Part shown: positions 1 through 31,681 of the stretch, one piece after another
Layout of the letters: each line of letters starts with the position of its first letter
How positions within the stretch are numbered: position 1 is the first letter of the stretch
Assembly (NCBI GenBank): GCA_026016245.1
Contig: CP061211.1
Span: forward strand, 1-32,000
Source of the DNA: Candidatus Pacearchaeota archaeon
GTDB lineage: Archaea; Nanobdellota; Nanobdellia; Pacearchaeales; UBA284
Direction: 5' to 3'
DNA: 32,000 nt
Notes under the pieces: model-generated
What the model saw: only the letters and a program-made list of their open reading frames with translations
Told to the model about the DNA's origin: nothing
The model's database searches: none
Made by a program: the position numbers and the translations under genes

Positions 1-3000
1 AAGAACCAGAAGAACCAATAGAAGAACCAGAAGAACCAATAGAAGAACCAGAAGAACCAATAGAAGAACCAGAGGAACTAGAAGAACCAGAAGAACCAGA
101 AGAACAGCCTGCTGAAGAACCTGTTGAAACTGAAATAGATATTCCAGATTTAACTGGAGCTGCTGTAGAAGAAGTTAGAGTGATAGATGGAATTTGTACA
201 ATAGAAGAATCTTTTATTTATGAGATAGATGAAGATGAATTTGCCCAGCTTATTCCTGGTAGCGTGATTTCCAAAAATGAAACATTGAAAGATTCTGTTA
301 TAAAAGTGATAAACAAAAAAACTGAAGTTGAGGTAACAACTAGCTATGCTGAAAAGGAATATGGTTATGGTTCTGATTTTCTTAGAGATAAAAAGATTAT
401 AGGTATTAATCTAAGTAAATTCAATTTTACAGTTTATGAACCTGGCACTTACAAATTTGATGTTAATTTTGTTTATTCAAATATTTCTTTGGCTTCTATT
501 TCCACAGAAGTTTTATTTGAAAATATAACTGAGATGGAACTTATGAATATTACAAATATTACTAACATAACAGAAATTAACGTAACTAATGTAACTAACT
601 TTACAATAACTTTTGTTGATAGAAAAGGAGAAGTGAAGGACATTATTGAGATTGAGTTTGATAAGAGTAAAGAACAGCTATTGAATCTCAAGGTGGCTGA
701 GACAAATATGATAGCTAGTATTATAGAGAAACAAGAAGAGATAAAAGAGGAAATTATAGAAAATAATTTTACAAAAGGAATAATAGGATTAGTTATTGTT
801 CAAGAATTATTGCCTGAAACTGAATTGAATATAGTAGAATTATCCCAGGACATAACTATTCAGATAGATTATCCTACATCAGAACAAGAAGTTATGGGCA
901 TTAAAACAGAAATTTTTGCTCTTGAGCCAACTAATGGACTTGTTTTAGAAGAGTCAATTATAACATTAGAAAAAGTTGAGGAAAATGTAACTTCTATATT
1001 ATATTGTTCTAAATGGGATATTGGATCTTTTTCATGTGATAATGATTGGTCAACTAAAAATATAGGGTTCTTGGATAATGGCACACATATTAGTTTTAAC
1101 ATAACAAGCTTTTCTGCTTATGCTGGTGGCAAGATCATGAATGTAACAAATATCACAAACATAACAGAGGTTTATTTGGAAATATGGGACGAAACAGATT
1201 ATGAAACAAAATATCCTGGCGATGAAGTTGGTTTTTATGCTAATTATAGAGACCAAGATGGAAATCAGATATTAAGTGGATGTAGTATTTTCTTTGATGA
1301 TAAAGAATATAGTATGCTTTTTATAGATCCTTTTTATGAATATATTAAGGTATTTGATTCTTCAGGAGAATTTGATTATAACCTTGTTTGTAATGTTTCT
1401 GAAGCAAGTGACATAGTAGAAATAAAGGAAGTTGAAAAAATAGAAGTAGAGAGAGGCCCTAATTGGGATGGTTATGAAAAAGAAGAAGGTATACACACAA
1501 GAATATTTTATTCAACCAGAGTAAATATAAAAGATTCTGATGGAAATTACTATCCTATTGATGATGTTGTCAAAATTGAGAAAATAAAAGAACATAAGTT
1601 TAATGTAAAATGGAGAGATAATGAGGTGGATATTAATATCATAGGACTTGGTCCAAATAATTTGCTATCAACAAAACTATACAAGCATGAAAAAGAGATT
1701 AGATATGATTATAAATTTAAAATAAATGATTCTAAATTTATCCCAAAAGTTCTCATAAAATCAAATAAAGAACTAGAACTATTAGAATATGGTTTTAGAT
1801 TAGAAGATATTGAATTTGATTTTTCAGAAAAAGCTAAGGAAGATTTTGATGTTAGAATACTAAATGAAGAAACAGGATACAGAATAACAGGATTAGCAGT
1901 AGAACAAAATATAAAAACCAAAACAGGAAGAGTAGAACTAGTGAAGGATTTCTCCAAAAAAGTAGGAGATTTTGTGATAATAGATCCTGTGATTAAATTA
2001 ACTTCTGGCAATGATTCAGCAGATATTCATGGTAGTGCACCTGCTCTGCCACCATCTCATGAATTACAGATGAAATGGGATATAAGTAGTATTCCTGATG
2101 ACTCCAGAATAGATGATGCAAAAGTTTGTTTATATATAATTGATAAACAAGGCAGTCCAGATAATGATGCAAATTTTTCAAGAGTAAATAACCAGACATG
2201 GGATGAAAGTATTGATGCAACAGGATATAATAATTTAGAAGAAACAAACATAACAAAACGCTATATATGGAGCAGCACAACTATTAACACATGGTCTTGC
2301 ATTAATGTGGCTGCCGCAGTATCAACAGATTATAATTTAGATAACCAGAATACAAGTTTTAGAATAGAAGATTTAGATGCTGTTATATCTTCTGTTGGAA
2401 AAATAAATGATTTAACTTACATGAGGTTTGGTGTAGAAGGATTTATGACTCCTGGACCTTTTCTTGATTTTGCTTCAAGAGAATACACTGAGACTGAGGG
2501 TTTAAAGCCTTATCTTAATATTACTTATACAGATATTGTAAACCCAAATATAGAATTTGTTTCTCCTACTCCTGGAAATGGAACAACACGATCAGAAGAT
2601 TATATTTATGTTAATGTTACTACAAGTGACACAAGTGATCATTATGCTGTCTTAGATTGGAATTATTCTTTAAGAGGATGGTGGAGATTTGAGAATAATG
2701 CTAATGATAACAGCACTTATAGTAATCATGGTGTTGTAAGTGGTGCAACTTATGAATCTTCAGGAAAATTTGGAGGAGCATATAATTTTGACGGAAGTGA
2801 TGATTCTGTAAATATATCAGATGCCACTGGTATAGGTTTAGAAGGTAGTGAATTTACTTTAACAACATGGGTAAAACCAAAGCAGTTAAAAAATTATGGT
2901 AATGCATTTGAGAAATTCCCATCAGCTTTGACATCTGGATGGGGGGTTATTACTTATGCTAATGGTAAATGGGATTTCCAAAGCAGAGATAGTTCTGGCT

Positions 3001-5750
3001 GGTCAAATATTAATGGTGGAGCAGCAGGATCTCTAGTTAATGGTGTATGGGCCTTCCTTACAGTAACTTATAATAGTACTCATGTCAGAACTTATACCAA
3101 CACAAATCTTGTTTCAACAGTTGCAAGAAGTCAAATTGTAGATAATGCTCTTGACTTGCATATTGGGTGTGATGCTGGCTATAACAGATATTTTAGTGGG
3201 ACCATAGATGAAGTTCAGATTTATGACAGGGCCTTGTCTATAAAAGAAATTAGAGCAAGTTATAATGCTGGCTCATATAGACTTGAAAATAATTTTACTA
3301 ATTTATCAAATGGAGAATACAAGTTTAGGGCTTATGCCATTGATATAAGTGGAAATACAAATCAGACAGAAGAAAGACAAGTAAATGTACATTTATGCGG
3401 CTGTAATAATGGAACATATAATTATATCTGTGGTGAAACAATAACAAGTTCTTGTACAATGAACTGTGATTTAAATGCCTCTGGAACTTGTTTTACAATT
3501 GGAGCAGATGATATTATAGTAGATGGAGATGGATATACAATCAATTACTCTTCTTCAAGTACTGGATATGGAATAAACAACTCAGCAGGTTATGACAACA
3601 TAACAATAACCAACTGCACAATCAATCAAACCAATGCTTCTGTGTGGAGCTTTGGTATAGTCTTAAATGAGTCTGATGACAGTACAGTAGAATATTGTAA
3701 TATGACAAATGGCAAGGCAGGAATTCTTGTCATGAATTCTTTTAATACAACTATTCAGCATAATTATGGATATAAATTTGATTATGGAGCAGCAACAGAG
3801 TGGGCAACTTGTGATCCTTTTAATGACACAATTCCTTACAAATTCTATGAATCTGGAATTTGGTTTGTTGAAAGCAGTAATGGAACAATATATAATAATT
3901 CAATTTATGGAGATGATTCTGAGTCAGGAGTTATGAATCATAATGGAACAGAAGCTGGAGTAACATTATGTAAAAGCAATTATACAAACATAACAGCAAA
4001 TAAGATTTATTATACAGATACTTTTGGATTTATTCTTTCTCAAAGCCATTATAATGATTTCTTTTATAATTTCATAAATGGCTCAAATACAACTGGTGCT
4101 CATAATACAAATGATGGGATTATCCTTGGAGGACCAAGTGGAGATGTTGATGCTGGAGCTTGCAATAATAATAATCTCAGCTTTAATGAGTTTTATGATT
4201 GTTCAGAATGGGGTCTTTTCCTAACAGGATCAAATAATAATACAATTTATAATAACACTGCAAATAGCAATACTGTTGGGATAAGAATTGGAGGAACTTC
4301 AAGTTCTAATAAAGTATATGATAATATTGTTAATGATAATACTGATTTTGGACTTGGAATAGAGGGAAATTATAATGAGGTAATAAACATTACAATCTTA
4401 TCAAATAATCAAAAAGGGATCCATATTTCTGATGCTTCTGCTCCAGGATATTGTCATGACAATATTATAATCAATGCAGAAATAGATTCAAGTGCTTTTG
4501 GAGTTTATATTAGTGCAGATAATCTTGCTGGATGTCAGGATAATATACTAAAAGATTCAAAAATAACAAACTCTGCAACAAAAGACATCTATGCATCAGC
4601 AGGTTTAGAAGGAACCCAGACTTTAAATGCAACTTTTTTAAATGTTTCCTTCAATAAAACCAGCATATTTTTTAGTCCAGAGCTTGAGAGTGGAGCTCTT
4701 TACATAAAATGGTATGTAGATGTTTATGTTAAAAATAAGCTAAATCAACCTATTGATCAAGCCAATGTAACTGCTTGGGATGTTAATAATACTTTAACAT
4801 TTACTAAATTAACAAACAGCTCAGGCTATATAGAAAGACAGAATGTAACTGAATTTTTTGAAAATGCGACAGGAAAATATTATTATACCAATTATAGCAT
4901 GAATGCAAGTAAAACTTCAGAAAATTATAAGGAAAAATCTCAAGAAGTTAATTTAACTATAAATAAACTTGTTATATTTATTTTAAATAGACCACCTACT
5001 AAACCTGTATTAATTAGTCCTGGAAATGAAAGCCATATAACAGATAGAACTCCTTTGTTTAATTGGACTAATGCTATAGATGAGGATGGTGATTCAATAC
5101 ATTATGTTTTGAATTTAACTTGTAATAAACAATTTGGTAATTGTGATCCTCTTGATAATAGATTTATTGAAAATATTGCTCAGTCAAATTATACCCCTAA
5201 TGATGATGAGTTTTTGAAAAATTTTTGGGATACTCTTGAATATTACAATTGGACTATTAAAGCGTGGGATGGTGAGGATTATGGTCCTGTTAGTGATGAA
5301 TGGCGTTTTAATATTGATAGTTTAGTAGCTGTAAGTCCGATAAATGATACATCTAATTTTGGTTCTATGCAACCTGGGACAAGCAATGATACTACTGATA
5401 ATAATCCATGGCCTGTTTCAATACAAAATGATGGAAATTGTTTTGTTAACATGAGTATTTATGCTACACAATTATGGGATATTACTCCTGCAACAAATGA
5501 ATCTTATCAATACAAATTTGATTTTTTAGAATCAAATTCATTTAATTGGAGCACTAGTACAATATCTTGGGCTAATATTCCAATTGGCTTTACAACACCT
5601 AATGTTTTAAATGAATTCAATTGGAGCTGGGATGATTTGAATGATAGCGCTGAATTAGATATTAAGCTTGCTCCATTAAGCAAAGAACCTCCCGGAGATA
5701 AAAATTCAATCATAACTCTAACAGGAACTTTTGAAGACATAGCAGAATAA
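1..5750 (+). CDS. Giant secreted or surface adhesin-like protein, 5'-partial. Order of recognisable parts: acidic EPEEPIE linker, DNRLRE-like domain, LamG/ConA-like lectin domain, right-handed parallel beta-helix (NosD-like) repeats, CarboxypepD_reg-like beta-sandwich, Fn3-like module.
   Basis: The frame of the 180..5750 ORF stays open to the window edge (codons from nt 3 read EPEEPIEEPEEPIE...VEEVRVIDG), so the GTG at 180 is probably not the true start. LamG-like signature: FDGSDDSVNISD...FTLTTWVKP...GTIDEVQIYDRALSIKEIRASY (~2680-3270). Beta-helix repeats: ITITNCTINQTN / STVEYCNMTNGKAGILV / NNTIYNNTANSNTVGIRIGG (~3400-4600). DNRLRE-like: LQMKWDISSIPDDSRIDDAKVCLYI (~2000-2530). About 80 N-x-S/T sequons counted by eye. 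There is no C-terminal TM anchor. Confidence 0.85.
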   Translation, partial: EPEEPIEEPEEPIEEPEEPIEEPEELEEPEEPEEQPAEEPVETEIDIPDLTGAAVEEVRVIDGICTIEESFIYEIDEDEFAQLIPGSVISKNETLKDSVIKVINKKTEVEVTTSYAEKEYGYGSDFLRDKKIIGINLSKFNFTVYEPGTYKFDVNFVYSNISLASISTEVLFENITEMELMNITNITNITEINVTNVTNFTITFVDRKGEVKDIIEIEFDKSKEQLLNLKVAETNMIASIIEKQEEIKEEIIENNFTKGIIGLVIVQELLPETELNIVELSQDITIQIDYPTSEQEVMGIKTEIFALEPTNGLVLEESIITLEKVEENVTSILYCSKWDIGSFSCDNDWSTKNIGFLDNGTHISFNITSFSAYAGGKIMNVTNITNITEVYLEIWDETDYETKYPGDEVGFYANYRDQDGNQILSGCSIFFDDKEYSMLFIDPFYEYIKVFDSSGEFDYNLVCNVSEASDIVEIKEVEKIEVERGPNWDGYEKEEGIHTRIFYSTRVNIKDSDGNYYPIDDVVKIEKIKEHKFNVKWRDNEVDINIIGLGPNNLLSTKLYKHEKEIRYDYKFKINDSKFIPKVLIKSNKELELLEYGFRLEDIEFDFSEKAKEDFDVRILNEETGYRITGLAVEQNIKTKTGRVELVKDFSKKVGDFVIIDPVIKLTSGNDSADIHGSAPALPPSHELQMKWDISSIPDDSRIDDAKVCLYIIDKQGSPDNDANFSRVNNQTWDESIDATGYNNLEETNITKRYIWSSTTINTWSCINVAAAVSTDYNLDNQNTSFRIEDLDAVISSVGKINDLTYMRFGVEGFMTPGPFLDFASREYTETEGLKPYLNITYTDIVNPNIEFVSPTPGNGTTRSEDYIYVNVTTSDTSDHYAVLDWNYSLRGWWRFENNANDNSTYSNHGVVSGATYESSGKFGGAYNFDGSDDSVNISDATGIGLEGSEFTLTTWVKPKQLKNYGNAFEKFPSALTSGWGVITYANGKWDFQSRDSSGWSNINGGAAGSLVNGVWAFLTVTYNSTHVRTYTNTNLVSTVARSQIVDNALDLHIGCDAGYNRYFSGTIDEVQIYDRALSIKEIRASYNAGSYRLENNFTNLSNGEYKFRAYAIDISGNTNQTEERQVNVHLCGCNNGTYNYICGETITSSCTMNCDLNASGTCFTIGADDIIVDGDGYTINYSSSSTGYGINNSAGYDNITITNCTINQTNASVWSFGIVLNESDDSTVEYCNMTNGKAGILVMNSFNTTIQHNYGYKFDYGAATEWATCDPFNDTIPYKFYESGIWFVESSNGTIYNNSIYGDDSESGVMNHNGTEAGVTLCKSNYTNITANKIYYTDTFGFILSQSHYNDFFYNFINGSNTTGAHNTNDGIILGGPSGDVDAGACNNNNLSFNEFYDCSEWGLFLTGSNNNTIYNNTANSNTVGIRIGGTSSSNKVYDNIVNDNTDFGLGIEGNYNEVINITILSNNQKGIHISDASAPGYCHDNIIINAEIDSSAFGVYISADNLAGCQDNILKDSKITNSATKDIYASAGLEGTQTLNATFLNVSFNKTSIFFSPELESGALYIKWYVDVYVKNKLNQPIDQANVTAWDVNNTLTFTKLTNSSGYIERQNVTEFFENATGKYYYTNYSMNASKTSENYKEKSQEVNLTINKLVIFILNRPPTKPVLISPGNESHITDRTPLFNWTNAIDEDGDSIHYVLNLTCNKQFGNCDPLDNRFIENIAQSNYTPNDDEFLKNFWDTLEYYNWTIKAWDGEDYGPVSDEWRFNIDSLVAVSPINDTSNFGSMQPGTSNDTTDNNPWPVSIQNDGNCFVNMSIYATQLWDITPATNESYQYKFDFLESNSFNWSTSTISWANIPIGFTTPNVLNEFNWSWDDLNDSAELDIKLAPLSKEPPGDKNSIITLTGTFEDIAE
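3..110 (+). repeat. In-frame 21-nt tandem repeat encoding an EPEEPIE acidic Pro/Glu linker
   Basis: The unit gaaccagaagaaccaatagaa is perfect at 3-23, 24-44 and 45-65, with degenerate copies to ~110 (EPEELE, EPEEPEEQP). The repeat may continue left of the window. Confidence 0.9.
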
Positions 5751-5768
5751 AAGGAGGAATAAATAAAA

Positions 5769-6734
5769 ATGAGAAATAAAATAAAAAGAAGGAAAGAGGG
5801 AAAAAAGAAGATATTTTTATTAGTTATAACTTTTTTTATATTTACCTTCTTGTTTAGCAATGTTAATGCTCTTGGAATTACTCCTGGAAGAACTAGTTTT
5901 GAATTTGAACCAGATATTGAAAAAATAGTTGAATTTAGACTTGTTAATACTGAAAACAAAGCTATGAATATTTCTTTGAAAGTAGGAGGAGAATGGTCTG
6001 ATTTTGTCATTTTAAATCAGACATCTGTTAAATTTAATGCAGATGAATATATGAAAACTTTAAGTTATAAGGTTAGATTTCCTTCTAGTATTGATAGTGG
6101 AGGGATAAAAGCAAAAATAATTGCTTCAGAAACAGCTTCTAATAATTTAGCTCAAGGAACAACAATTGGTATAAATATTGCTGTAGAACATCAGCTTTAT
6201 GTTTTATCAAATATAACTGCCCCTGAAAAAGAGGAAATAAATGTTACTAAAGTATTTGTTAAGCACTATCAGAAAGGAGAACCTGCAAAAGTTGAAGTAG
6301 AAATAATAAATCCTTCAGCAGAGACAATGAAAAATGTTTATTCTACAATGCTGGTTTATGATAGATATGGCCTTCTTAGAAGCCAGTTTAATTCTACTCA
6401 TATAGATATTGAGCCAAATAAGACTGAGACAATAGAGGCTTATTGGGATACTTATGGTTTTGAAAAAGGGGATTATGGAGCCAATCTTATTATTTATTAT
6501 AATAATAAGACAGAAGAACAAGGCCTTATAATTTCTTTAGGTAGTGATAGAATAGAGATTGGTTTTGGGAAGTTTGAATTTGAAAAACATCCTACAGTTC
6601 CAATATCAATAACAGAAATTAAAAAAATAAATCCAGTGATAATAGCTCTTATTGTTGCTATTATCTTGTTTATTATTGTAGATATTATCGTCTTTATTTA
6701 TTTAAAAAAGAAAACGAAAAAAATCATAAATTAA
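5769..6734 (+). CDS. Membrane-anchored surface protein with a signal peptide, an N-terminal beta-sandwich module, one CARDB-like domain and a C-terminal TM helix with a Lys-rich tail
   Basis: An AAGGAGG Shine-Dalgarno sits 5751-5757, just after the upstream stop. N-terminus: KKKIFLLVITFFIFTFLFSNVNA|LG. C-terminus: VIIALIVAIILFIIVDIIVFIYLKKKTKK. It is a paralogue of the 7862..9079 product (YWDTYGFEKGDYGANLIIYYNNKTEEQG vs YWDTTGIETGEYDAKVVLHYEDKTTVKEG). Confidence 0.8.
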   Translation: MRNKIKRRKEGKKKIFLLVITFFIFTFLFSNVNALGITPGRTSFEFEPDIEKIVEFRLVNTENKAMNISLKVGGEWSDFVILNQTSVKFNADEYMKTLSYKVRFPSSIDSGGIKAKIIASETASNNLAQGTTIGINIAVEHQLYVLSNITAPEKEEINVTKVFVKHYQKGEPAKVEVEIINPSAETMKNVYSTMLVYDRYGLLRSQFNSTHIDIEPNKTETIEAYWDTYGFEKGDYGANLIIYYNNKTEEQGLIISLGSDRIEIGFGKFEFEKHPTVPISITEIKKINPVIIALIVAIILFIIVDIIVFIYLKKKTKKIIN

Positions 6735-6841
6735 TTTTGTTACATCAAGTAACATCAGCATCGGAGTAATAAACTAAACATTTAAATATTTCTTTTTTCT
6801 ATTAATTTTAATTTAAAAAGAGATAAAAAGAAAAAGAAAGA

Positions 6842-7072
6842 ATGGGAGATATTTCAAAGACAGTAGTTGTTATCCTTCTTATCGCCACTATTTTAGTTTC
6901 AGTTATTGGAACCTGGTTTATTTTGAATACTATAGATAATGCAATGGTGGGAGTTTCTACTGGGCAGATGAAAAGTACTGGGGGAGTTAGTGTCACAGTG
7001 GCTAATCCATCAGATTATATGTCTTCAGGAGCTGGGCAAGTAGGAGTTAATATTGAAAACCCCCCAGCTTAA
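6842..7072 (+). CDS. Small (76 aa) protein with a pilin-like N-terminal hydrophobic helix. It may be a minor filament subunit or a signal-anchored protein.
   Basis: The N-terminus MGDISKTVVVILLIATILVSVIGTWFILNTIDNAMVG is homologous to the N-terminus of the next gene. From memory it resembles the archaeal Pilin_N/DUF1628 consensus (..[27 protein letters not shown]). A TATA-like TTTAAAAA at 6812-6819 lies ~26 nt upstream of the ATG and there is no SD, which suggests a leaderless mRNA. Confidence 0.6.
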   Translation: MGDISKTVVVILLIATILVSVIGTWFILNTIDNAMVGVSTGQMKSTGGVSVTVANPSDYMSSGAGQVGVNIENPPA

Positions 7073-7154
7073 AAAGATATAGAAGATAAGAAGGTCAATA
7101 GAATAATATTAATTTAAATATTATTAAATTTATAAATCAAAGAAAAAAGAGAAA

Positions 7155-7799
7155 ATGGCTGAAATATCAAATAAATTCCTTGTGTTTTTGTTAGTAGTAG
7201 CTATTTTAGTAACAATTGTAGGAACTTGGTATAGTATTGACAGAGTTAATAGATTAGCAGGAGTGACAGGTTATGGAACAGCTGGTTATGTCAATGTTAC
7301 AATTACAGGAAAGATATCAATTAATATAACACAGCCTTATTGTGGTTTTGGAAGTGGGCATGTTACAGAAGGATATGACTATGCAATTCTAGCTCCTGGA
7401 TCAACAGGTGAACCGCCATGTTGTGAACTTGGGGATACAAAAGCAAACTGGACAAACACAACATCATATGCCCCAGATTGTATGGTAATAAAGAATGTAG
7501 GAAACACTAATGCAAAGATTAATGTAAGTTCAGATAAGGATGCAGCAACAATGATTGGAGGAAGTAGTCCAAATGTTACAGTATGGTTTGAGGATAAAAC
7601 TTCTGATGCTTGTATTGGTGGTGCTGGTCTGATAGGGTATCCTGGAAGTGAGATATCAACAGCAAACATAACAATATGTAATAGCTTAGACACAACTAAT
7701 GATGAGATGTATGTTGGCTGTTATCTAAAAATTCCAAAGGATGCAATAGCTAGTGCAAAAACAGCGGAATGGACATTTACTGGAACAGCAGCTCCATAA
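7155..7799 (+). CDS. 214-aa protein with a pilin-like N-terminal helix and a Cys- and sequon-rich extracellular domain. Candidate filament or surface subunit.
   Basis: N-terminus: MAEISNKFLVFLLVVAILVTIVGTWYSIDRVNRLAGV. The motif IS.K....L.A.ILV.(V/I)(I/V)GTW(F/Y) is shared with the 6842 gene. Seven N-x-S/T sequons and about eight Cys. TTTATAAA at 7129-7136 lies ~23 nt upstream of the ATG and there is no SD. Confidence 0.65.
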   Translation: MAEISNKFLVFLLVVAILVTIVGTWYSIDRVNRLAGVTGYGTAGYVNVTITGKISINITQPYCGFGSGHVTEGYDYAILAPGSTGEPPCCELGDTKANWTNTTSYAPDCMVIKNVGNTNAKINVSSDKDAATMIGGSSPNVTVWFEDKTSDACIGGAGLIGYPGSEISTANITICNSLDTTNDEMYVGCYLKIPKDAIASAKTAEWTFTGTAAP

Positions 7800-7861
7800 A
7801 TAAAATTTTTAAATTTATTTAGAATTTATTTTTTTATTTATAAAAATCCAAAAAGAGAAGA

Positions 7862-9079
7862 ATGAACAAAAAGATTTTTATTTTTATTTTTTTATTTCTA
7901 TTTTTAGTAATAATATTCAATTCAACTTTAATTACTGCCCCAGGTATAGCTGGTGCTGTGTATGAAGTTCTTTTTTTTGAACCTGGACTAGAAAAAACAT
8001 ATGTTTATCATGTAGATTCCAATACTATTAGGCCAATGGATCATTATATTGATATGAATGGTGATCTAACACCATATTTTACTTTGAGTACTAGTGTTTT
8101 TGAAGATCTTGCTCCTGGAGAACTTAGAAGTTTTGAGGCTCATATGAAATTACCTCAAGAACTTGAGCCAGGAGAGCATAGATTATATATTTGCGCAACA
8201 GAGGCTGAAGGAAGAACCCCTGAGGGCGCAGGAGCAGGTATCGGAACCAGGGTAAGAGTTTGTGCTGTAATTATTGTAATTTCACCACATCTAGGCAAAC
8301 ATGTTGAAGTTTCTATGGATGTTGAAAATGTTGCTAAAGGCGAAGATGCTGAATTCAAACTTAATGTTTTTAATATAGGCACTGAAGCAATTGATATTCA
8401 TAGTGTGATAGATATTTATAGTCAAGAGGTTAGTGCTGGGAAAGAAACGAAAATTGTTACACTTAAAACAGATAAAGATTATTTAGTTAGTGGTCAAAAA
8501 ACAACTTTGAGTGCATCTCATAATACAAGTGATATGGATATAGGGGAATATAAGGTAAAGGCAATACTTTATTATGATGGACTTCAAGAAACTGTAGAAA
8601 AAACTTTCCGTGTTGGGGAACTTAATATTGAGATTTTGGAATTTACAGAAGAAGTATCTCAGAATCAGTTAAATCCTATAAATGTCAAAGTCAAAAACGG
8701 GTGGAAAGGTGAAATTAAGGATATTTATGCTTCTATTGAAGTCAAACACCCTACGAAGAATTTAGTTATAGCCACCATAAAAACTCCCCCAACTAATATT
8801 AAAGCGTGGGAAACAAGGAATCTTGTGGCTTATTGGGATACTACTGGAATTGAGACTGGGGAGTATGATGCTAAAGTTGTATTACATTATGAGGATAAAA
8901 CAACTGTAAAAGAGGGAAAAATAAAGGTAAAAGAATTTGTGGAAGGGCCAGCCATCTCTTTAACTGCCATCTTATTATTCATGCTTATAATTGCTGTTCT
9001 TGTATTAATTATTTTAATAATACATATGATGAAAAAAAGACAGGGACGAGTTGTGAAAAAGAAAAAGATTAAAAAATAG
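7862..9079 (+). CDS. Membrane-anchored surface protein with a signal peptide, an N-terminal beta-sandwich module, two CARDB-like domains and a C-terminal TM helix with a Lys-rich tail
   Basis: N-terminus: MNKKIFIFIFLFLFLVIIFNSTLITA|PG. C-terminus: LTAILLFMLIIAVLVLIILIIHMMKKRQGRVVKKKKIKK. It is a paralogue of the 5769..6734 product. TTTATAAAAA at 7837-7846 lies ~21 nt upstream of the ATG. Confidence 0.8.
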   Translation: MNKKIFIFIFLFLFLVIIFNSTLITAPGIAGAVYEVLFFEPGLEKTYVYHVDSNTIRPMDHYIDMNGDLTPYFTLSTSVFEDLAPGELRSFEAHMKLPQELEPGEHRLYICATEAEGRTPEGAGAGIGTRVRVCAVIIVISPHLGKHVEVSMDVENVAKGEDAEFKLNVFNIGTEAIDIHSVIDIYSQEVSAGKETKIVTLKTDKDYLVSGQKTTLSASHNTSDMDIGEYKVKAILYYDGLQETVEKTFRVGELNIEILEFTEEVSQNQLNPINVKVKNGWKGEIKDIYASIEVKHPTKNLVIATIKTPPTNIKAWETRNLVAYWDTTGIETGEYDAKVVLHYEDKTTVKEGKIKVKEFVEGPAISLTAILLFMLIIAVLVLIILIIHMMKKRQGRVVKKKKIKK

Positions 9080-9098
9080 TAAAACATCAATAATTTAT

Positions 9099-9551
9099 AT
9101 GGTAAAGGCTAAGACAAGAACTAAAACTAAAAAAAAGATAAGATGGGGCAGGCTTTTTCTTATGCTTATCATAATTGCTATGGTAGTAACAGCCATAACA
9201 CAATTTCTTTATTATTATTTAAATTATCAATATGGCGTCAGGCAGAGACAGGTTTATGAGATGAAATTGAAGGTTGCTGATTATGTTGGTTTTAGCGTTG
9301 ATCCAGATATTTTAAATTTTGGAGTGGTTATGCCTTCAGGAGGATCAAAACGTTCTGTTGAGCTTTCAGCTGATGAGCCGACAAAAGTGAAGGTCATACT
9401 TAAAGGTGATTTAGCACCTTGGGTTATGGTTTCAGAGAATAATTTTGTTTTTGAAGGTGATAAGAGTATTGAATTTACAGCAGTAGTGCCAGAAGATGTA
9501 GAAGAAGGAGAATACACAGGAACAGCAATCATATTATTCAAGAAACCTTAA
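9099..9551 (+). CDS. N-terminally anchored 150-aa protein with a single beta-sandwich domain
   Basis: A basic N-terminus is followed by a TM helix (RWGRLFLMLIIIAMVVTAITQFLYYYL). The segment KVILKGDLAPWVMVSENNFVF matches LKVGGEWSDFVILNQTSVKF (5769 gene) and MNGDLTPYFTLSTSVFE (7862 gene). The C-terminal VPEDVEEGEYTGTAIILF strand is typical of PapD/CARDB-like sandwiches. Confidence 0.7.
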   Translation: MVKAKTRTKTKKKIRWGRLFLMLIIIAMVVTAITQFLYYYLNYQYGVRQRQVYEMKLKVADYVGFSVDPDILNFGVVMPSGGSKRSVELSADEPTKVKVILKGDLAPWVMVSENNFVFEGDKSIEFTAVVPEDVEEGEYTGTAIILFKKP

Positions 9552-23911: not shown

Positions 23912-24655
23912 TTAACTTTTATCCCCAACAAATTGTTTTTCTATTTTTTCAAGAAAAGAAATCTTACTGATATCATCATATTCCATATAACAATTCTTAC
24001 CATGTTCTTTGGCATATCTTAGAGCTATGTTGGCTTTCTCAAACAAATCTAGATTACCATTTCTCTTCCCATTTTTACTTTTTGGCATAAATTTTTCATA
24101 AGCACTTTTCATCTTTGATGTGGCTAATTCAGTTTTTTTATTATGTGAGGCGACTCCAATACTTGCTGTAAGATTAAAAGAAGCAAGAAATTTATCCTCT
24201 TGAATAAACTTCCTAATTCTTTCAGCCATATTTTTAGCATCTTCTGAGGGAGTTTCAGGCATTAAAACAACAAATTCTTCACCGCCAAACCTAGCAGCGA
24301 CATCTGTTTCTCGGACATTACTTTTGATAATCATTGAAACCATCTGTAAAACCTCATCGCCACGAAGATAACCATGCTTATCATTGATCCTTTTAAAATC
24401 ATCTAAATCAAGAAGCAACATTGAGATAGTTCTGCCATAACGTTCAGCTATTGCCATCTCATGTTTAAAGACAGAATTAAAATACCTATAATTGTAAAGT
24501 TGTGTTTTAGTATCCACAGTAGCTAGATAATAAAGCTTGGCTATTTTTTTAGCATCAAGACCTTTCTTAAGATCTTCTTTTCTACCTAAAATTTTCTTTA
24601 ACCAGTCTGCCATCTTAAAATTCAAATATATCAAATAATATAATCCAACAAACAC
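23912..24655 (-). CDS. Stand-alone GGDEF-domain protein (putative diguanylate cyclase) with intact GGEEF active site and RxxD I-site
   Basis: LLDLDDFKRINDKHGYLRGDEVL (metal and substrate motifs), RETD-VAARF-GGEEF (I-site with the same spacing as PleD RESD-LLGRY-GGEEF; GGEEF is at 24272-24286), and SIGVA...ANIALRYAKEHGKN. The more likely start is MADWLKK (ATG at 24613), because the 14 upstream codons lie in an AT-rich promoter-like stretch. Confidence 0.85.
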   Translation of the reverse strand: MFVGLYYLIYLNFKMADWLKKILGRKEDLKKGLDAKKIAKLYYLATVDTKTQLYNYRYFNSVFKHEMAIAERYGRTISMLLLDLDDFKRINDKHGYLRGDEVLQMVSMIIKSNVRETDVAARFGGEEFVVLMPETPSEDAKNMAERIRKFIQEDKFLASFNLTASIGVASHNKKTELATSKMKSAYEKFMPKSKNGKRNGNLDLFEKANIALRYAKEHGKNCYMEYDDISKISFLEKIEKQFVGDKS

Positions 24656-26487: not shown

Positions 26488-27024
26488 ATGTTTACTATGA
26501 AACAAAAATGTAGCCTTTGGCGGGTTTTTGATGTATTTGTTGAAAAACCCTTAAAGATTTATTATATCAAAGAAATAGCTAGAAAAATAAATCTTGCTCC
26601 AACATCTGTTAAAAAGCATTTGTTATATTTACTCAAACAAAATTTAATACTTAAAAAGAAAGGTGAAAGGTTTTTTGGTTTTGTAGCTAATAGAGATAAT
26701 AAAGATTTTTTATTCTACAAGAAGATATTCAATATAATCAGACTTAAAGAATCTGGATTTCTTGATTTTTTAATTGATTCTCTTCATCCACAAGCAATAG
26801 TTCTATATGGTTCATACTTTAGAGGGGAAGATATAGAGACTAGCGATATAGATATGCTAATACTCTCAAAAATTAAAAAAAGATTAATATTGGAGAAATT
26901 TGAGAGAATTTTAAAGAAGGGAATTCATCTTATAACTATAGCTAGTCTGAAAAAATTAACACCTGGGTTAAAAATGGAAGTAATTAATGGATTGGTTTTA
27001 CATGGATATTTAAAAAATGATTGA
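26488..27024 (+). CDS. wHTH-fused minimal nucleotidyltransferase (MNT-type antitoxin-like)
   Basis: The N-terminal ~70 aa are wHTH-like (IKEIARKINLAPTSVKKHLLYLLKQNLILKK). NTase motif LYGSYFRGEDIETSDIDMLIL (G-S...D-x-D) lies at 26809-26853. A perfect TTTATATA box at 26466-26473 suggests a near-leaderless transcript, possibly using the second ATG at 26497. Confidence 0.75.
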   Translation: MFTMKQKCSLWRVFDVFVEKPLKIYYIKEIARKINLAPTSVKKHLLYLLKQNLILKKKGERFFGFVANRDNKDFLFYKKIFNIIRLKESGFLDFLIDSLHPQAIVLYGSYFRGEDIETSDIDMLILSKIKKRLILEKFERILKKGIHLITIASLKKLTPGLKMEVINGLVLHGYLKND

Positions 27025-27421
27025 AGAGATATTTAAAATTTCAAAGAGCATGGGAAGGGCAAAAGCATTAAAAGAAATGGCGCAAGAAAGATTTAGTGAT
27101 GTTGAAAAAGAGAAGAAAACCTACAAAATTATAGAGCAATATTATGAAGTAATAAAAGAACTTATAACTGCATTAATGTATCTAGATGGATTCAAAACAT
27201 TGAGCCATAAGGCCCTTCTTTTTTATTTAGAAAAAAATTATAATAGATTCTTCAGTAAAGATGAGTTTATTTTAATAGATGAAACAAGAAGATTAAGAAA
27301 TGATATCTTATATTATGGAAAAAAAATTGATTTAACTTTCTTGACAAATAATGAAGAAAGAATAAAAAAGATAACAAATAAACTTATTAGGATAGTTAAT
27401 AAAAAACTTCCCAACATTTAA
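27017..27421 (+). CDS. HEPN-domain protein (partner of the MNT gene; toxin-like)
   Basis: It overlaps the MNT gene by 8 nt. It is a 134-aa helical protein with ETRRLRNDILYYG (27287-27316) where the HEPN R-x4-6-H motif would sit, here reading R-x4-Y. Confidence 0.65.
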   Translation: MIEEIFKISKSMGRAKALKEMAQERFSDVEKEKKTYKIIEQYYEVIKELITALMYLDGFKTLSHKALLFYLEKNYNRFFSKDEFILIDETRRLRNDILYYGKKIDLTFLTNNEERIKKITNKLIRIVNKKLPNI

Positions 27422-27457: not shown

Positions 27458-30400
27458 ATGGAAAAAAAGGTGAAGAAATTATTATTAGTGAGCATTTTTC
27501 TTGTTATGATTTTCTTGGTTTTGATGGTTAATGTTAGTGCTGCTGTTAGTTTATGTCGCAGCTCTGAGCTTGTTAAAGTATTTTGTAAGGGTATGGGTTG
27601 CCATCCTCTTTGGGAGTCTGTTGAATCTGAAACAGCATGTCAATATGAAATGTGGGGCGGCCCACCATATGCTAATTACTGTTATGATAATGGTTTTTAT
27701 CCAATAGCAACAACCACACATAAAGGTTCGTCAAAAGCGTGTAGATTTGCAAAAACGATTACTGGTTGTGGCCTGTTGTATCGAAATCGTAAATGTTGGG
27801 GTATTTGTTCAAAAGGTGAAGAATATGCATATAGAACAACAAAATATAATCATATGTTTATAAAAACTAAAATAAATGATACAGACATGATTCCAGATGC
27901 TCAGACTTGTTATAATTCTATTCTGTGCGATTCTGGTTGGACTGAATATATTAAGTGGCATGATCATGTAAAAATAAGTCCAGGCGGAGATAGGTATCAT
28001 TGTGTAAGAGTATGTGTTAAATGTGAGGATGGATATGTTAATGTTGATAATAACTGGGATAATGGTTGTGAACCTGCTACTGGTTGTGATGCTGTTTGTT
28101 ATGCTGCATGCCGTCAAAGACCATATCTACCTACAGGGTGTCATACACCAATGATGGGTTGGCCACATCCTTTTTGTGAAAGCAGTTGCAAATGTCACTG
28201 TAGACATACCCCAGAAGATGGATGTATTCTGAATTATGCTGAAGACTGTGCTGCTCAAGGAGGAATTTGTCGTGAGATTGGTAATGGAGCAGAATGTCAG
28301 ACTTTTGGTATAGAACATTGTAGTGGTTCTTGTCAGGTTTGTCAGAATGTGCTTGATGATATGCCTGATAATCATATTTTAATGATTGATTCTGATATTT
28401 CTGCTCCATTTGGCGGCTATGGAAAATACTGTTTAAGTTTTGGAGGAACAAATAAAACAATTGATTGTGGAGATAATTGGATTACTGGAGGAGAAGGCCG
28501 TGTCACAGGAATTTTTGTTTTAGGCACTGGCCATACAATTCAAAACTGTAAAATAAAATCCTTTTACGGAGAAAGTGATGGCATTTGGCGAGGTGGGAGA
28601 GGAATACAGACTGTTTATGGTGTTAATATTAATATAAAAAATATAGAAATAACTGATATAAAAGGTAAATCTAAATACATTCCTCCGGAAGAACCGCCAA
28701 TACAATATTCAAGTAACAATAATTTTTATCCAGAGCTAGAATTCCAAGGAGGAGGTTCTTGGGAACACTATCCAGGTGCGGGAATTGAAATATTAGCTAA
28801 TACTGGACCTACTTTTATTGGAGCATATCTTTCTGATGTAAATATACATAATAATGAATGGTATGGTTTATATTTAAGACAAGGTGAGGTTAGTGTAACA
28901 AATTCAAGATTTTGTTTTAACAGTCAATTTGACATTAAAAAAGATGCTGGAAGTGTTAAATATCACTCTGGCCTTACTTGTGATCAAAATAAAGTTCCTG
29001 CTGGAGTGACTTGTGAAGAACCTTGCGGACTTCCAGGAGAATGTGTTGTAAATTCAATAAGTGTCACACCAGATTGTGAAGGTGGTTCAAGTCCTGCCTG
29101 TGAGCTAGGTGAAGAGATAATGATAAGTATAAGTTATTCTGGAACTGAGTGTCCTACTCCTTCTTATATTCAGGTCGATGCTAACTCTACTGGAGATCCT
29201 CTTGGTGAAAAATGTACTATTGCATGGAAATCTCCTCCAGCATCAATCAAAGGAATGGAAACAACATGCACAAGCTCACCTTGCACAGAAAATTGGGTAA
29301 TTAATATACCTTCAATTCCTTCTGAATGTTTAGGAAAAACAGTTTATGCTTGGGCAGTTGGCTTGTATGATGATCCTAGCTACACCCCAGGACATCATGT
29401 AACAGGCAACACAACTACAATTCCTTATCCAAGTTATGGTCATTTCACTTTTGCTGAAGAAGAAATACCACCAACAGAATGTAAAATTATAGATGCAGAT
29501 GTTAAGACATATTGTGGAACTGAAGGATGTGATAATGGAGACAAAGTTGAATTGAATATAACAGTAGAAGATATGAGTAAGTGTGAGGCATTAAATGTCA
29601 ATAAAATGCAAATAGATGCTTTTTCAGATGCGCAATCACAACCAACAGGCATGGTTATTGGTGGAGGAGCTTTATGTAATGTTTATATGGTTAATTCAAG
29701 TGTAATAAAACAAGGTGATACTTATTTAGGAAATTGGACTGTTATAGTTCCTCAAGGCTGTCAAGGAGAAACTGTAGATGCGAATATAGCAAAAGTTTTC
29801 AATAATACTGGACAAATAGCACAAAAATTTGGAAATTTCGGATCTTTTGATTTTGTTGATGAACCTACAAACTGGTATGTACTTGAAGATATTAGTGTTT
29901 CACCTTCAGTTTTTGTTTTGAATATTACTGACACACAACAACTTGAAGTTATTGCATTAATGAAATGGGTAAAAAACAATAGCTTCTTTACTTTGGATGT
30001 AACCCAACAAGCAGATTATATTTCAAATGATACTAGCGTTGCTTCTGTTTCAGCACTCGGCTTAGTTACTGGAATTGGAGATGGGACAGGAAAAATAACT
30101 GCAGAATACACACATTCTGAGGTCACAAAAGAAGACTCTAGTATTGTTAATGTCAGATATTTTGAAGATGATTATATTAGATATATTAATCTGGCTTTAA
30201 ATAAATATGAAATTGAAATAAATGAAGAAACAAGTTATGAAGTTAAGGCTTATTGGTCTAATGGTCTGACAACTGATATAACTTCTGAATCAGATGTTCA
30301 GAGTTTAAATCCAAATGTTGCTTCTGTAAATCAAAATACTCATAGAGTTAAGGGAGAGGATGAAGGAATAGCCATCATAAATGCTAGCTATATTCATAAT

Positions 30401-31681
30401 AATCTTCCTTATGGAGATGAAAAATTTATAATTGTTACTGGAGAAGCAGTTGGAGAATATAATCTTTCAGTTGACACATGTGGAGATACATCTATTCCAC
30501 CAGATGGAGATTGTGAAGATTTTATTAATGTGAAAGGTGAAATAACTGTTAATCAAGAATCTTGGGGCATTGCACCACAAGAAAGATTCCCACTTCCTTC
30601 AGATAATTATAGAGTTTCTTTTGGTCCTCTTCAGGATTGGTATGAACCTGGGGAGATGTCAGTATTTTTGCCTCCAAATGTTTCTTTGATGGGTATTTAT
30701 ACTAAAGAGCCTGTGGAGTATGCTCTAATAATTGTCCAAGCTAAAGATGAACAGACAGGACAATTTATCAATGCTTTAATTAACTTATATCTTGAAGATG
30801 ATCTTGTTAATTCTACTATAAATGATGTGAGATATAATTATTCAGAGACATATCCTATTGAATTCACAGCTGAATTTGAAGACCAAAGTGGTTACATTAC
30901 ACCATCTAATTTAACAATAACAATTTATGGAAATGGAATTTATTTCTTTACAGTTTATTATGAAAAAGAAGCAGTTGGAGAATGTTTCTGTGAACCAAAG
31001 CATGTTCCTTGTGGTTTTTGTTATGATTTTTATTCTGAATGTGATGGCCCTCCACAAGGACCTGGACAAATAATTCCTTGTTCACCTGGTTGGATATGTA
31101 ATTATGTGACAGGAAAATGTCAACCAACTTCAACCCAAGATGAGTGTCATGATAATGCTACTACTTGTAATATTATCACTGGTTGTTATTGGGATTATCC
31201 AGACATCCCTCCTCCTTATTGTAAACATTGCCAAACAGAAGGTCCTGAAACATGTTCAGGTTATGATAATCAGGGAACTTGTAATTTAGATCCTTGTGTT
31301 GTCAAGAATGTTGGTTGTCCTTCTGGTGCTAGTGACTGTAGATGTGAATGGGAAACTGATGAATGTATTCTTAAATATCAACAACAAACAAATGGAGATT
31401 TTTGTGAGATAACTTTAAGACAGGGGACTTGTGAAGAAGGTTGCCAAGGAAAAATAAATTATAGATGGCAAAATTATACTTGTGATCCTGGTTCATGTTC
31501 AGAACAAGCTTGCGTGGATTTAACCTATCCTCCCCCAGATTATACAAAATCAGAATGTGTGATTTGTCCGACACCTTTTAGAGAGCTTCCATTTTTTTCA
31601 TGGTGGAATATTTTAGCTGTTGTGTCTGTATTGATAGTGTTTTATATATTCATGCTTAGAAAAAAGAGAATTAATTATTAA
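27458..31681 (+). CDS. 1407-aa cysteine-rich secreted surface protein with a C-terminal TM anchor. Order of parts: signal peptide, N-terminal Cys-rich region, beta-helix-like region, two Big_2-like Ig domains, C-terminal Cys-rich region, TM helix.
   Basis: Signal peptide LLLVSIFLVMIFLVLMVNVSA|AV. About 30 Cys in residues ~30-300 (27550-28360). Big_2-like segments ISVSPSVFVLNITDTQQLEV...ISNDTSVASVSALGLVTGIGDGTGKITAEY (~29885-30110) and YEIEINEETSYEVKAYW...LNPNVASVNQNTHRVKGEDEGIAIINASY (~30200-30390). About 28 Cys in 30976-31580. Anchor WWNILAVVSVLIVFYIFMLRKKR. Confidence 0.85.
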   Translation: MEKKVKKLLLVSIFLVMIFLVLMVNVSAAVSLCRSSELVKVFCKGMGCHPLWESVESETACQYEMWGGPPYANYCYDNGFYPIATTTHKGSSKACRFAKTITGCGLLYRNRKCWGICSKGEEYAYRTTKYNHMFIKTKINDTDMIPDAQTCYNSILCDSGWTEYIKWHDHVKISPGGDRYHCVRVCVKCEDGYVNVDNNWDNGCEPATGCDAVCYAACRQRPYLPTGCHTPMMGWPHPFCESSCKCHCRHTPEDGCILNYAEDCAAQGGICREIGNGAECQTFGIEHCSGSCQVCQNVLDDMPDNHILMIDSDISAPFGGYGKYCLSFGGTNKTIDCGDNWITGGEGRVTGIFVLGTGHTIQNCKIKSFYGESDGIWRGGRGIQTVYGVNINIKNIEITDIKGKSKYIPPEEPPIQYSSNNNFYPELEFQGGGSWEHYPGAGIEILANTGPTFIGAYLSDVNIHNNEWYGLYLRQGEVSVTNSRFCFNSQFDIKKDAGSVKYHSGLTCDQNKVPAGVTCEEPCGLPGECVVNSISVTPDCEGGSSPACELGEEIMISISYSGTECPTPSYIQVDANSTGDPLGEKCTIAWKSPPASIKGMETTCTSSPCTENWVINIPSIPSECLGKTVYAWAVGLYDDPSYTPGHHVTGNTTTIPYPSYGHFTFAEEEIPPTECKIIDADVKTYCGTEGCDNGDKVELNITVEDMSKCEALNVNKMQIDAFSDAQSQPTGMVIGGGALCNVYMVNSSVIKQGDTYLGNWTVIVPQGCQGETVDANIAKVFNNTGQIAQKFGNFGSFDFVDEPTNWYVLEDISVSPSVFVLNITDTQQLEVIALMKWVKNNSFFTLDVTQQADYISNDTSVASVSALGLVTGIGDGTGKITAEYTHSEVTKEDSSIVNVRYFEDDYIRYINLALNKYEIEINEETSYEVKAYWSNGLTTDITSESDVQSLNPNVASVNQNTHRVKGEDEGIAIINASYIHNNLPYGDEKFIIVTGEAVGEYNLSVDTCGDTSIPPDGDCEDFINVKGEITVNQESWGIAPQERFPLPSDNYRVSFGPLQDWYEPGEMSVFLPPNVSLMGIYTKEPVEYALIIVQAKDEQTGQFINALINLYLEDDLVNSTINDVRYNYSETYPIEFTAEFEDQSGYITPSNLTITIYGNGIYFFTVYYEKEAVGECFCEPKHVPCGFCYDFYSECDGPPQGPGQIIPCSPGWICNYVTGKCQPTSTQDECHDNATTCNIITGCYWDYPDIPPPYCKHCQTEGPETCSGYDNQGTCNLDPCVVKNVGCPSGASDCRCEWETDECILKYQQQTNGDFCEITLRQGTCEEGCQGKINYRWQNYTCDPGSCSEQACVDLTYPPPDYTKSECVICPTPFRELPFFSWWNILAVVSVLIVFYIFMLRKKRINY

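Follow-up and report, generated by a model that had tools for sequence, protein, structure and literature searches.

The subject of this report is a cluster of six genes at the left end of a 32,000-nucleotide stretch of DNA from a Candidatus Pacearchaeota archaeon (contig CP061211.1); this whole stretch is referred to below as the window. The window has a G+C content of 30% and carries archaeal housekeeping genes, including a split RNA polymerase B, subunit A' and others. Its first 9.5 kb had been described in an earlier note as filled by six co-directional genes, and our calls of open reading frames (ORFs) confirm this: six ORFs, all on the + strand, occupy positions 1-9551. The first (3..5750) is open at the left edge and has at least 1915 codons; it encodes a giant adhesin-like protein. 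The second starts 18 bases after it and encodes a protein of 321 amino acids (aa) (5769-6734). The remaining four encode proteins of 76 aa (6842-7072), 214 aa (7155-7799), 405 aa (7862-9079) and 150 aa (9099-9551), which we designate by their lengths. A thymidylate kinase gene comes after the cluster, on the opposite strand. The 7155-7799 product is identical to IB618_00020 of a Candidatus Pacearchaeota metagenome-assembled genome. Because this tag would make the gene number four, the window presumably begins at a contig start, with the adhesin gene cut there. All six proteins were compared with Pfam and NCBIfam, and five of them gave only generic or sub-threshold matches. The other ORFs of the window encode, according to a Pfam scan and their translations, RNA polymerase subunits, thymidylate kinase, TrmB, a GGDEF protein, a hydrolase and similar proteins. 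As the earlier note had stated, there is no secretion ATPase, prepilin peptidase or sortase among the ORFs of the 32 kb.

The order of the cluster recurs in at least nine contigs of Pacearchaeota and Woesearchaeota type with at least four different flanking neighbourhoods, and for this reason the six genes are a conserved module and not a chance adjacency. The order is adhesin, an N-terminally anchored protein of 146-173 aa (absent from the lineage of the window), a protein of ~320-412 aa with immunoglobulin-like (Ig-like) domains, a protein of 63-80 aa, one to three copies of a 190-215 aa protein, a protein of 360-407 aa and one of 133-166 aa. Homology of the syntenic members was checked by BLASTP, hidden Markov model (HMM) searches and hhalign. 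In the loci L001/L017, L005 and L006, with 42-45% identity to the 214-aa protein, the cluster adjoins tmk, YjbQ and RNA polymerase genes, and the neighbourhood is the same in L007 (61-65% identity). In L008/L009 and L018 (25-30% identity) it adjoins TsaD, L7Ae and gyrase. The neighbours are MoxR-DUF58-VWA genes in L010 and a Joint Genome Institute (JGI) contig, a tRNA endonuclease gene in L011, and enolase and ribosomal genes in a second JGI contig. The homologues are thus co-ordered rather than scattered down to 25-30% identity. Mere conservation of whole-genome order among close relatives was considered and rejected, as the distant lineages keep the cluster in different neighbourhoods. Within 10 kb of the related loci, the gene tables of the nine contigs contain no gene for a sortase, a signal peptidase, a prepilin peptidase, a platform protein or a secretion ATPase.

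A separate observation concerns L010 (18384-20621) and the JGI 3300072015 contig, two divergent lineages in which an operon for a MoxR-type AAA ATPase, a DUF58 protein and a VWA protein (Bat-like) adjoins the cluster, accompanied by genes for proteins of 687 aa, ~55 aa and ~1300 aa. The operon is absent from the window and may be a linked module for surface-protein maturation.

The 214-aa protein has 7 Cys and 7 N-glycosylation sequons, and it gave no NCBIfam match, no Pfam match at E<=1 and no PDB sequence match. A word-indexed search found only 22 relatives, those with a source name all being Pacearchaeota. A profile search among 1.84 billion cluster representatives found 1,742 members at E<=1e-3 and 1,133 at E<=1e-10, nearly all of them 190-250 aa long. 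The taxonomic breadth of this family rests on the source names of the relatives (Pacearchaeota, Woesearchaeota, 'Nanoarchaeota archaeon' or 'archaeon'); a locus search with a close profile gave six near loci. A scan of 68 members yielded no WxL Pfam match at E<=0.1, only stray weak matches to DUF4402 and Fimbrial_K88, and the 68-member profile retrieved nothing useful from the PDB sequences.

Members of the family begin with M-x-[DE]-[IV]-S-N-K-x-L, and a hydrophobic helix with conserved A16, S20 and G23 comes next. After the helix come a linker with near-invariant T38-G39 and G44 and a conserved amphipathic segment, which in the 214-aa protein spans residues 44-59 (7284..7331, + strand; 'GYVNVTITGKISINIT') and in the family has the pattern TG-x4-G-x-[VA]-N-[VLI]-[TS]-[IV]...[IVL]-N-[FVL]-T, with T38 present in 61/68, G39 in 66/68 and G44 in 62/68 sequences. 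Next in the family design are a [DN]-[FW]-G-[ST]-G motif and a sandwich with the motifs 'ENxGN' and 'FIGGTxP', ending in 'IPxDAPxGxK...TFTA'. C153 and C175 are conserved family-wide and four Cys are conserved within the close Pacearchaeota group.

The AlphaFold2 model of the 214-aa protein (22 sequences, mean predicted local distance difference test score, pLDDT, of 82.7) consists of a helix at residues 3-37 and a confident beta-sandwich at residues 56-212, with a stretch of low confidence between them (pLDDT ~46-57 over residues ~21-50, and below 50 at 29-36 and 39-41). Residues 38-55 are unpaired in the model, with a pLDDT of ~50, though they are conserved, and residues 44-59 are on this evidence a candidate complementing (donor) strand. 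Comparison of the model with the PDB by Foldseek gave nothing at E<=0.001, the best match having E 2.5e-3 and the TM-scores lying between 0.35 and 0.55. About two-thirds of the top 50 fold matches are subunits assembled by donor-strand exchange, with probabilities up to 0.96: FimG, FimF, FimA, PapE, CsuA/B, Caf1 and Pyrodictium CanA, the last at ranks 9, 37 and 43. The same 50 matches include no type IV pilin, no WxL chain and no TasA, AbpA, DUF1102 or thread subunit. The last four also gave no match by sequence, and the TafA family gave none in Pfam or NCBIfam. The earlier note had allowed that the small proteins might be plain signal-anchored globules; for the 214-aa protein we find a helix, an unpaired conserved strand and a sandwich whose fold matches are dominated by pilins.

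Some members of the family have an ordinary Sec-type signal peptide, whose short c-region ends in TG-R-A directly ahead of the conserved strand, and these sequences hint at cleavage at that point. A TasA/SipW-type signal was rejected for the 214-aa protein: its 'GTW' motif, which resembles the 'GGTWA' of TasA, is accompanied by neither an NCBIfam match nor a linked SipW-like gene. Several observations bear on the range of forms in the family. Two members (P0119 and P0136) contain an insert of ~330 residues, Kelch/beta-propeller-like by eye, between the N-terminal strands and the C-terminal half, so the 214-type domain tolerates a large insertion. Lone copies occur away from the cluster at L002 10001-10681 and L004 10001-10648 (GCA_964396475), one between archease and RtcB genes and the other adjoining SecD/SecF. 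GCA_964396475 also has two tandem copies inside its cluster.

The giant protein has more than 1850 aa, as the earlier note had stated, and Pfam bears out the LamG and beta-helix modules named there. A Laminin_G_3 (LamG; concanavalin-like lectin) domain lies at residues 930-1083 (2790..3251, + strand; PF13385, E 1.4e-24) and right-handed beta-helix/NosD repeats at residues 1319-1521 (3957..4565, + strand; PF13229, E 1.2e-15; PF05048, E 1e-13). The protein contains 81 N-glycosylation sequons compared with ~32 expected, a 2.5-fold enrichment. Together with the conserved cysteines of the 214-aa family, this speaks for a location outside the cell. What the earlier note overlooked is that the C-terminal domain of the adhesin is a member of the 214-aa family. 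It occupies residues ~1795-1909 (5385..5729, + strand), carries the motifs 'IQNDGNCFVNMS' and 'DSAELDIKLAPLSKEPPGDKNSIITLTGT', and scores 23.6 bits (E 1e-8) with the 68-sequence family profile, with the HMMER filters off and a database of seven sequences. The narrow profile of 22 sequences (hhalign) gave no match to this region, so that the broader one was needed, and it likewise gave none to the 150-aa protein.

The same domain forms the last ~115-165 residues of every adhesin homologue tested (7/7), and in the others the C-terminus matches the family profile with E 1.5e-16 (L011), 1.5e-14 (L009), 4.6e-13 (L001), 6e-11 (L005), 1e-10 (L016) and 1.3e-8 (L007). It is the best-conserved part of the adhesins, whose N-terminal domain content is variable and in homologues includes Pel9A-like and DUF2341 domains. 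In relatives, LamG and the C-terminal domain together form a separate gene of ~600 aa downstream of beta-helix/DUF2341 giants, and the 214-type domain is also found at the C-terminus of a 927-aa beta-helix protein. These comparisons establish that the family of the pilin-like domain is new and that it links small subunits to giant adhesins.

The part of the earlier description that did not stand is that the adhesin has no membrane anchor of its own. With the gene cut at position 1, the window does not allow such a conclusion. The visible part has no hydrophobic segment and no C-terminal hydrophobic tail by hydropathy, and its C-terminus has no PGF/sortase-type signal and no PGF-CTERM. An orthologue with 60% identity (L007 669-7085, GCA_964396475) is 2139 aa long and starts ~246 residues earlier, with a cytoplasmic 'MPYKRYIKIGGKVYGPYEY' head of ~47 residues followed by a transmembrane (TM) helix at residues 48-77. 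Within that orthologue (669-900) the motif M-x-YKRYI-x-I-x-GK-x-YGPYEY-x-S-x-R precedes the TM helix. A similar YKRYI/YGPYEY-type N-terminal motif, which has no assigned family, is found on one 248-aa member of the 214-aa family (P0056), and the shared motif may be a sorting or tethering head. Just upstream of the listed ORF start of the window adhesin there is an acidic Pro/Glu repeat 'EPEEPIEEPEEP' (3-182, + strand), and a low-complexity Pro/Glu spacer also follows the TM helix of the L007 orthologue.

The three proteins of 321, 405 and 150 aa had been noted as membrane-anchored proteins with a common beta-sandwich module. The homology is significant by BLASTP, HMM and hhalign, and the anchors are recognized by hydropathy. 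The 321- and 405-aa proteins are full-length paralogues (BLASTP 1e-9 and 1e-7; the 405-family profile matches the 321-aa protein with E 4.5e-50). In the AlphaFold2 model of the 405-aa protein (19 sequences, pLDDT 85.8) a signal helix (residues 3-19) precedes three Ig-like domains in tandem (28-141, 148-251 and 256-357), and after these come a C-terminal TM segment (359-393) and a Lys/Arg tail. The 321-aa protein has a signal/TM segment at residues 14-37, two Ig-like domains corresponding to domains 1 and 3 of the 405-aa protein, a C-terminal TM segment at residues 283-316 and a basic tail. Domain 1 of the 405-aa model has a Gly-rich loop of low confidence (residues 115-131, bases 8204-8254) that separates its last two strands, and the final strand (residues 132-141) is very hydrophobic.

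The 150-aa protein consists of a basic N-terminal tail, a TM segment at residues 14-41 and a single Ig-like module at residues 62-145. This module is related to domain 1 of the 405-aa protein (BLASTP 0.003; HMM 4.8e-7), and hhalign aligns its residues 62-145 with residues 26-112 of the 405-aa protein at a probability of 84% and E 7e-6. In 8/8 lineages aligned the 150-aa protein stops a few residues past the strand equivalent to the sixth strand of that domain, and therefore the module is without the loop and the last strand. From these alignments we read the 150-aa protein as a truncated Ig module with an extra N-terminal strand. A homologue of the protein has a weak Pfam ASH match.

The 'GDLxPW' motif strings that the earlier note had quoted from the three proteins all exist, at residues 72-89 (321 aa), 65-81 (405 aa) and 101-118 (150 aa), but they were given in the order 9099 / 5769 / 7862 rather than that of the gene labels. 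The motif lies in domain 1 of the 405-aa protein, and G67, L69 and Y72 are invariant or nearly so in the 405-family. The three proteins are related rather than of unlike folds, and the 405-aa protein models as tandem Ig domains of ASH/PapD-like kind. Foldseek against the PDB matched it to RbmA and, with E 5e-14, to ASH-type Ig domains found in ciliary central-pair proteins. The best TM-scores (0.41-0.43, E 4e-9) were to Enterococcus WxLIP 9i1y/9i25, and the Haloferax S-layer protein (csg) was at rank 32. By sequence, a PF11797 match is faint (E 0.19) and is also precomputed on two 405-family homologues; DUF916 was not detected, PDB sequences gave nothing useful for the 405-aa protein, and the PapD-family chaperone entries PF00345/PF02753 had no Pfam match in any of the three proteins.

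The 76-aa protein is alike to the 214-aa protein over the first ~50 residues (BLASTP 2e-9; HMM 5e-12), which bears out the common N-terminal helix proposed for the two small proteins, and it aligns only to positions 1-53 of the 214-family profile (E 5e-12). It consists of the conserved helix (residues 1-31), a linker and two short amphipathic strands, 'GGVSVTVAN' and 'GQVGVNIEN', with no globular domain, and the same design is found in six lineages. Hydropathy places N-terminal TM segments in the 76-, 214- and 150-aa proteins. The small proteins start with M-A/G-[DE]-I-S-N/K, and there is no class III signal peptide or [KR]-[GA] cleavage motif in them. The possibility that a class III signal peptide is hidden by a misplaced start codon was rejected because of in-frame stops just upstream in L001, L002, L004 and the window.

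Taken as a whole, the cluster is two repeats of one plan, in which a carrier of a 214-type domain is followed by a tandem-Ig protein with a C-terminal anchor. The carrier is either the adhesin, with its C-terminal domain, or the free 214-aa subunit, and the Ig partners are the 321- and 405-aa proteins. A single-Ig, N-anchored protein belongs to the second repeat in the window (150 aa) and is present in most lineages.

These results lead us to propose, tentatively and at a strength somewhat short of even, that the cluster is a lineage-specific module of DPANN archaea (of Pacearchaeota/Woesearchaeota type) that presents a giant, glycosylated adhesin of carbohydrate-binding type by Sec-dependent strand complementation, with no motor dedicated to the task. 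All parts would be exported by Sec. The tethered Ig proteins would hold the 214-type domains through beta-strand complementation, in the manner of chaperone and pilin or of WxLIP and WxL. A short fibre or stalk with the adhesin at the tip would result if the N-terminal strand of the 214-aa protein completes a 214-type domain next to it; if the strand instead completes the truncated Ig module of the 150-aa protein, the product would be a docking complex. The 76-aa protein would provide a membrane-anchored strand without an acceptor domain and could serve as the base anchor or terminator, and the energy would come from folding rather than from ATP. Two forms are possible and are not told apart: a fibre tipped by the adhesin with the 76-aa protein at its base, following the logic of chaperone-usher pili and tafi, or a non-polymeric docking complex following that of WxL/WxLIP.

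Several features of the models and alignments fit strand complementation: the pilin-like fold, the unpaired strand on a linker, the strand-only mini-protein, the truncated Ig module and the disordered loop. In PapD-type chaperones the donor loop sits where domain 1 of the 405-aa protein has its disordered loop. An ATPase-independent filament or docking platform had already been suggested in the earlier note. The lack of nearby pilus machinery and of a class III signal agrees with that suggestion, whose premise of an anchorless adhesin is not supported; polymerization and a chaperone-like role are hypothetical. On the whole, the earlier description is mostly borne out, and its reading is a sensible lead that stood up to our checks of synteny, of the relation among the three Ig proteins and of the make-up of the 214-aa protein. 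Host attachment we infer from the lineage and the domain content. We found no description of this system in the literature on DPANN archaea with donor strands, adhesins or pilins. It is possible, if unlikely, that the 214-aa family and its two tethered Ig partners constitute an undescribed system for fibres or adhesin anchoring that works by strand complementation only, with no usher, sortase, ATPase or peptidase, and carries giant variable host-binding adhesins.

Several points weigh against strand complementation. The fold matches of the 214-aa protein are as weak as stated above, and Pfam, NCBIfam and PDB sequence searches showed no homologue among the known donor-strand systems, chaperones and WxL proteins. 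The adhesin domain of L011 aligns from profile position 38, so that the equivalent of the donor strand seems to be present in cis. Because of this, the conserved strand may be strand A or an ordinary edge strand, misplaced by AlphaFold2 working from 22 sequences. The N-terminal helix is also conserved far beyond what a disposable signal peptide would need; conservation this extreme points to a helix-based function and could reflect a specific membrane partner.

One alternative, which we judge unlikely but take seriously, is that there is no special assembly at all. The products would then be independent Sec-inserted, anchored glycoproteins of a glycocalyx or S-layer-like coat, with a canopy and stalk in the style of SlaA/SlaB, co-regulated because they share a compartment, and the helix would be an anchor only. 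S-layer stalk proteins of the SlaB type have tandem Ig domains and a C-terminal TM segment, which is also the plan of the Ig proteins here. Every protein of the cluster has a hydrophobic anchor, the adhesin orthologue included, all are rich in glycosylation sequons, and one of the fold matches to the 405-aa model is the Haloferax S-layer protein. However, the strict order and paired design, kept across neighbourhoods and down to 25-30% identity, argue for physical interaction, and one small domain is common to a free subunit and to the C-terminus of the adhesin. The strand-only 76-aa and truncated 150-aa proteins are hard to explain as stand-alone proteins, and a variable content of LamG, beta-helix and DUF2341 domains is typical of adhesins, not of lattice proteins.

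The conservation of the helix is the best argument for a second alternative, which we consider rather doubtful, namely that the small proteins are pilins of a type IV filament (TFF) with its machinery elsewhere in the genome. The argument gains its force because helix-only Epd pilins and TFF system 1 are reported to occur in DPANN archaea (bioRxiv 10.64898/2026.04.22.720090). On this reading the major pilin would be the 76-aa protein, helix-only in the manner of Flp/Epd pilins. It would co-assemble through the shared helix with the 214-aa protein, a pilin with a globular head, and the Ig proteins and the adhesin would be accessory or tip components. The first ~28 residues of the two proteins are near-identical, and the helix is kept in a family otherwise ~25% identical. 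Strong conservation of this kind (acidic 2-3, S5, N6, K7, L9, A16, S20, G23) is the behaviour of pilins that share a filament core, and pilin genes are often unlinked from their machinery. Against this reading, the class III signal peptide and the [KR]-[GA] motif are missing, with upstream in-frame stops in several lineages, and some members of the family have the ordinary Sec-type signal peptides that end in TG-R-A. AlphaFold2 puts a linker of ~15-25 residues, at low confidence, between helix and sandwich, and the helix is not packed on the sheet. Type IV pilins, archaeal or bacterial, number 0 among the top 50 fold matches, and no T2SSE, T2SSF or Peptidase_A24 gene lies within 10 kb in the contexts examined.

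A Csc-like complex of the same architecture that captures or degrades polysaccharide for nutrient scavenging, rather than attaching to a host, is improbable: LamG and the pectate-lyase-like beta-helix/NosD repeats of the adhesin and the Pel9A-like and DUF2341 domains of its homologues would suit it, but these domains are equally typical of adhesins, no glycoside hydrolase or lyase catalytic family was significant, and no transporter gene is linked to the cluster. The architecturally parallel WxL/Csc clusters of lactobacilli were, according to the part of PMC10599100 that refers to Siezen 2006, first proposed for carbohydrate utilization, which also speaks for a complex of this kind.

Three further observations concern genes of the window outside the cluster. 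A strong match to the GGDEF diguanylate-cyclase domain (PF00990, E 5e-40, motif GGEEF) marks a 247-aa protein (23912-24655, - strand). To our knowledge, cyclic-di-GMP signalling has seldom been reported in archaea; a GGDEF protein is unexpected in a reduced DPANN genome and may have been acquired from bacteria. At 27458-31681 (+ strand) there is a second giant surface protein (1407 aa), extremely Cys-rich, which contains a Big_2 domain in addition to a signal peptide and an anchoring C-terminal TM segment; it is not related to the six-gene cluster. At 26488-27421 (+ strand) a nucleotidyltransferase gene (PF01909) overlaps a small gene without a Pfam match, and from their position and size we would guess that they are a toxin-antitoxin-type MNT/HEPN pair.

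The manner in which DPANN archaea of Pacearchaeota/Woesearchaeota type attach to a host or substrate is essentially unknown, because none of this poorly cultivated group is well cultivated. To this setting the cluster adds widespread proteins that lack annotation, namely a pilin-like family of more than 1,700 representatives, two Ig families and a strand-only mini-protein, together with a fixed gene order and a clear link to giant variable adhesins. If strand complementation is the correct reading, the principle of chaperone and pilin, or of WxLIP and WxL, arose in archaea in a membrane-tethered and usher-free form, and archaea would have, in addition to threads, bundling pili, cannulae and tafi, a further route to surface appendages that needs no motor. 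Should the proteins form no more than a docking complex, the shared C-terminal domain is still a practical handle for finding surface adhesins in these genomes.

Among known systems, archaeal S-layers (SlaA/SlaB- or csg-type) are resembled by the tandem Ig domains and TM segment, which recall a stalk protein, and the cluster differs in having no PGF-CTERM. Archaeal type IV filaments of the Epd, Aap or archaellum type have, as here, a hydrophobic N-terminal helix common to several proteins; the helix-only 76-aa protein resembles Epd/Flp pilins, and TFF loci commonly include accessory genes of adhesin-like or Ig-rich type. The cluster differs from them in the missing class III signal peptide, in having no linked ATPase, platform or peptidase gene, and in a helix that the model does not pack on the globular domain.

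The archaeal donor-strand filaments (Haloarcula tafi, Sulfolobus threads, Pyrobaculum bundling pili and Pyrodictium cannulae) are Sec- or Tat-exported, ATPase-independent archaeal fibres, and the 214-aa model has the cannula protein CanA among its fold matches. In tafi (TafA/C/E/F with TafD and TafG) the tip subunit, TafC, bears a LamG domain and the terminal subunit, TafF, is anchored in the membrane (PMC11821415). In NCBIfam the adhesin of the window matches TafC in part, with 44.8 bits compared with a cut-off of 410 and only in the region overlapping LamG, and on these grounds membership was rejected. There is no TafD/SipW-type peptidase and no TafG/DUF5305 gene in the window or the related loci examined, and no Tat motif; the tafi clusters, as described in PMC11821415, have no pair of tandem-Ig and single-Ig membrane proteins such as is found here.

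The chaperone-usher pili supply the top fold matches of the 214-aa protein (FimG, FimF, FimA, PapE, CsuA/B and Caf1), weak as these are. As in FimH, the adhesin joins a binding region to a C-terminal pilin-like domain, following the logic of a two-part tip adhesin. The subunits have an N-terminal amphipathic strand on a flexible linker and there are several paralogous subunits per genome. The Ig partners belong to the PapD-like/ASH kind, and in their domain 1 a disordered loop precedes the final strand; assembly would likewise need no ATP. On the other hand, there is no usher gene in the window or the related loci, and this archaeon has no outer membrane. The candidate 'chaperones' are membrane-anchored and three-domain and have no PF00345/PF02753 match, the subunits have a conserved TM helix, and donor-strand exchange is here a candidate mechanism.

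The WxL/Csc clusters of Firmicutes differ from the present one in sequence: there is here no WxL domain (PF13731), no dual W-x-L motif, no DUF916 signature and no homology at the sequence level. The organism, an archaeon, also lacks peptidoglycan. In the small subunit a conserved N-terminal helix takes the place of a plain signal peptide, the Ig protein is three-domain and is joined by an extra partner of 150 aa, and the top fold matches of the 214-aa protein are pilins, with no WxL chain. In architecture, by contrast, the two are alike in 4/4 components. A WxL/Csc set comprises a small WxL protein, a large WxL protein, a WxLIP with the layout DUF916-DUF3324-TM and a small LPXTG protein; correspondingly, we find a small one-domain protein (214 aa), a large protein that ends in this domain and carries modules for binding a host or carbohydrate ahead of it (the adhesin), tandem-Ig proteins with a TM segment (321 and 405 aa) and a tiny anchored protein (76 aa). 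The signal peptide and C-terminal TM segment of WxLIP are present here too, WxLIP gives the best TM-scores to the 405-aa model, and a few members of the 405-family have faint PF11797 matches. A disordered hairpin of WxLIP is predicted to complete the WxL sandwich (PMC10599100), and it is this hairpin that the disordered loop in domain 1 of the 405-aa protein resembles.

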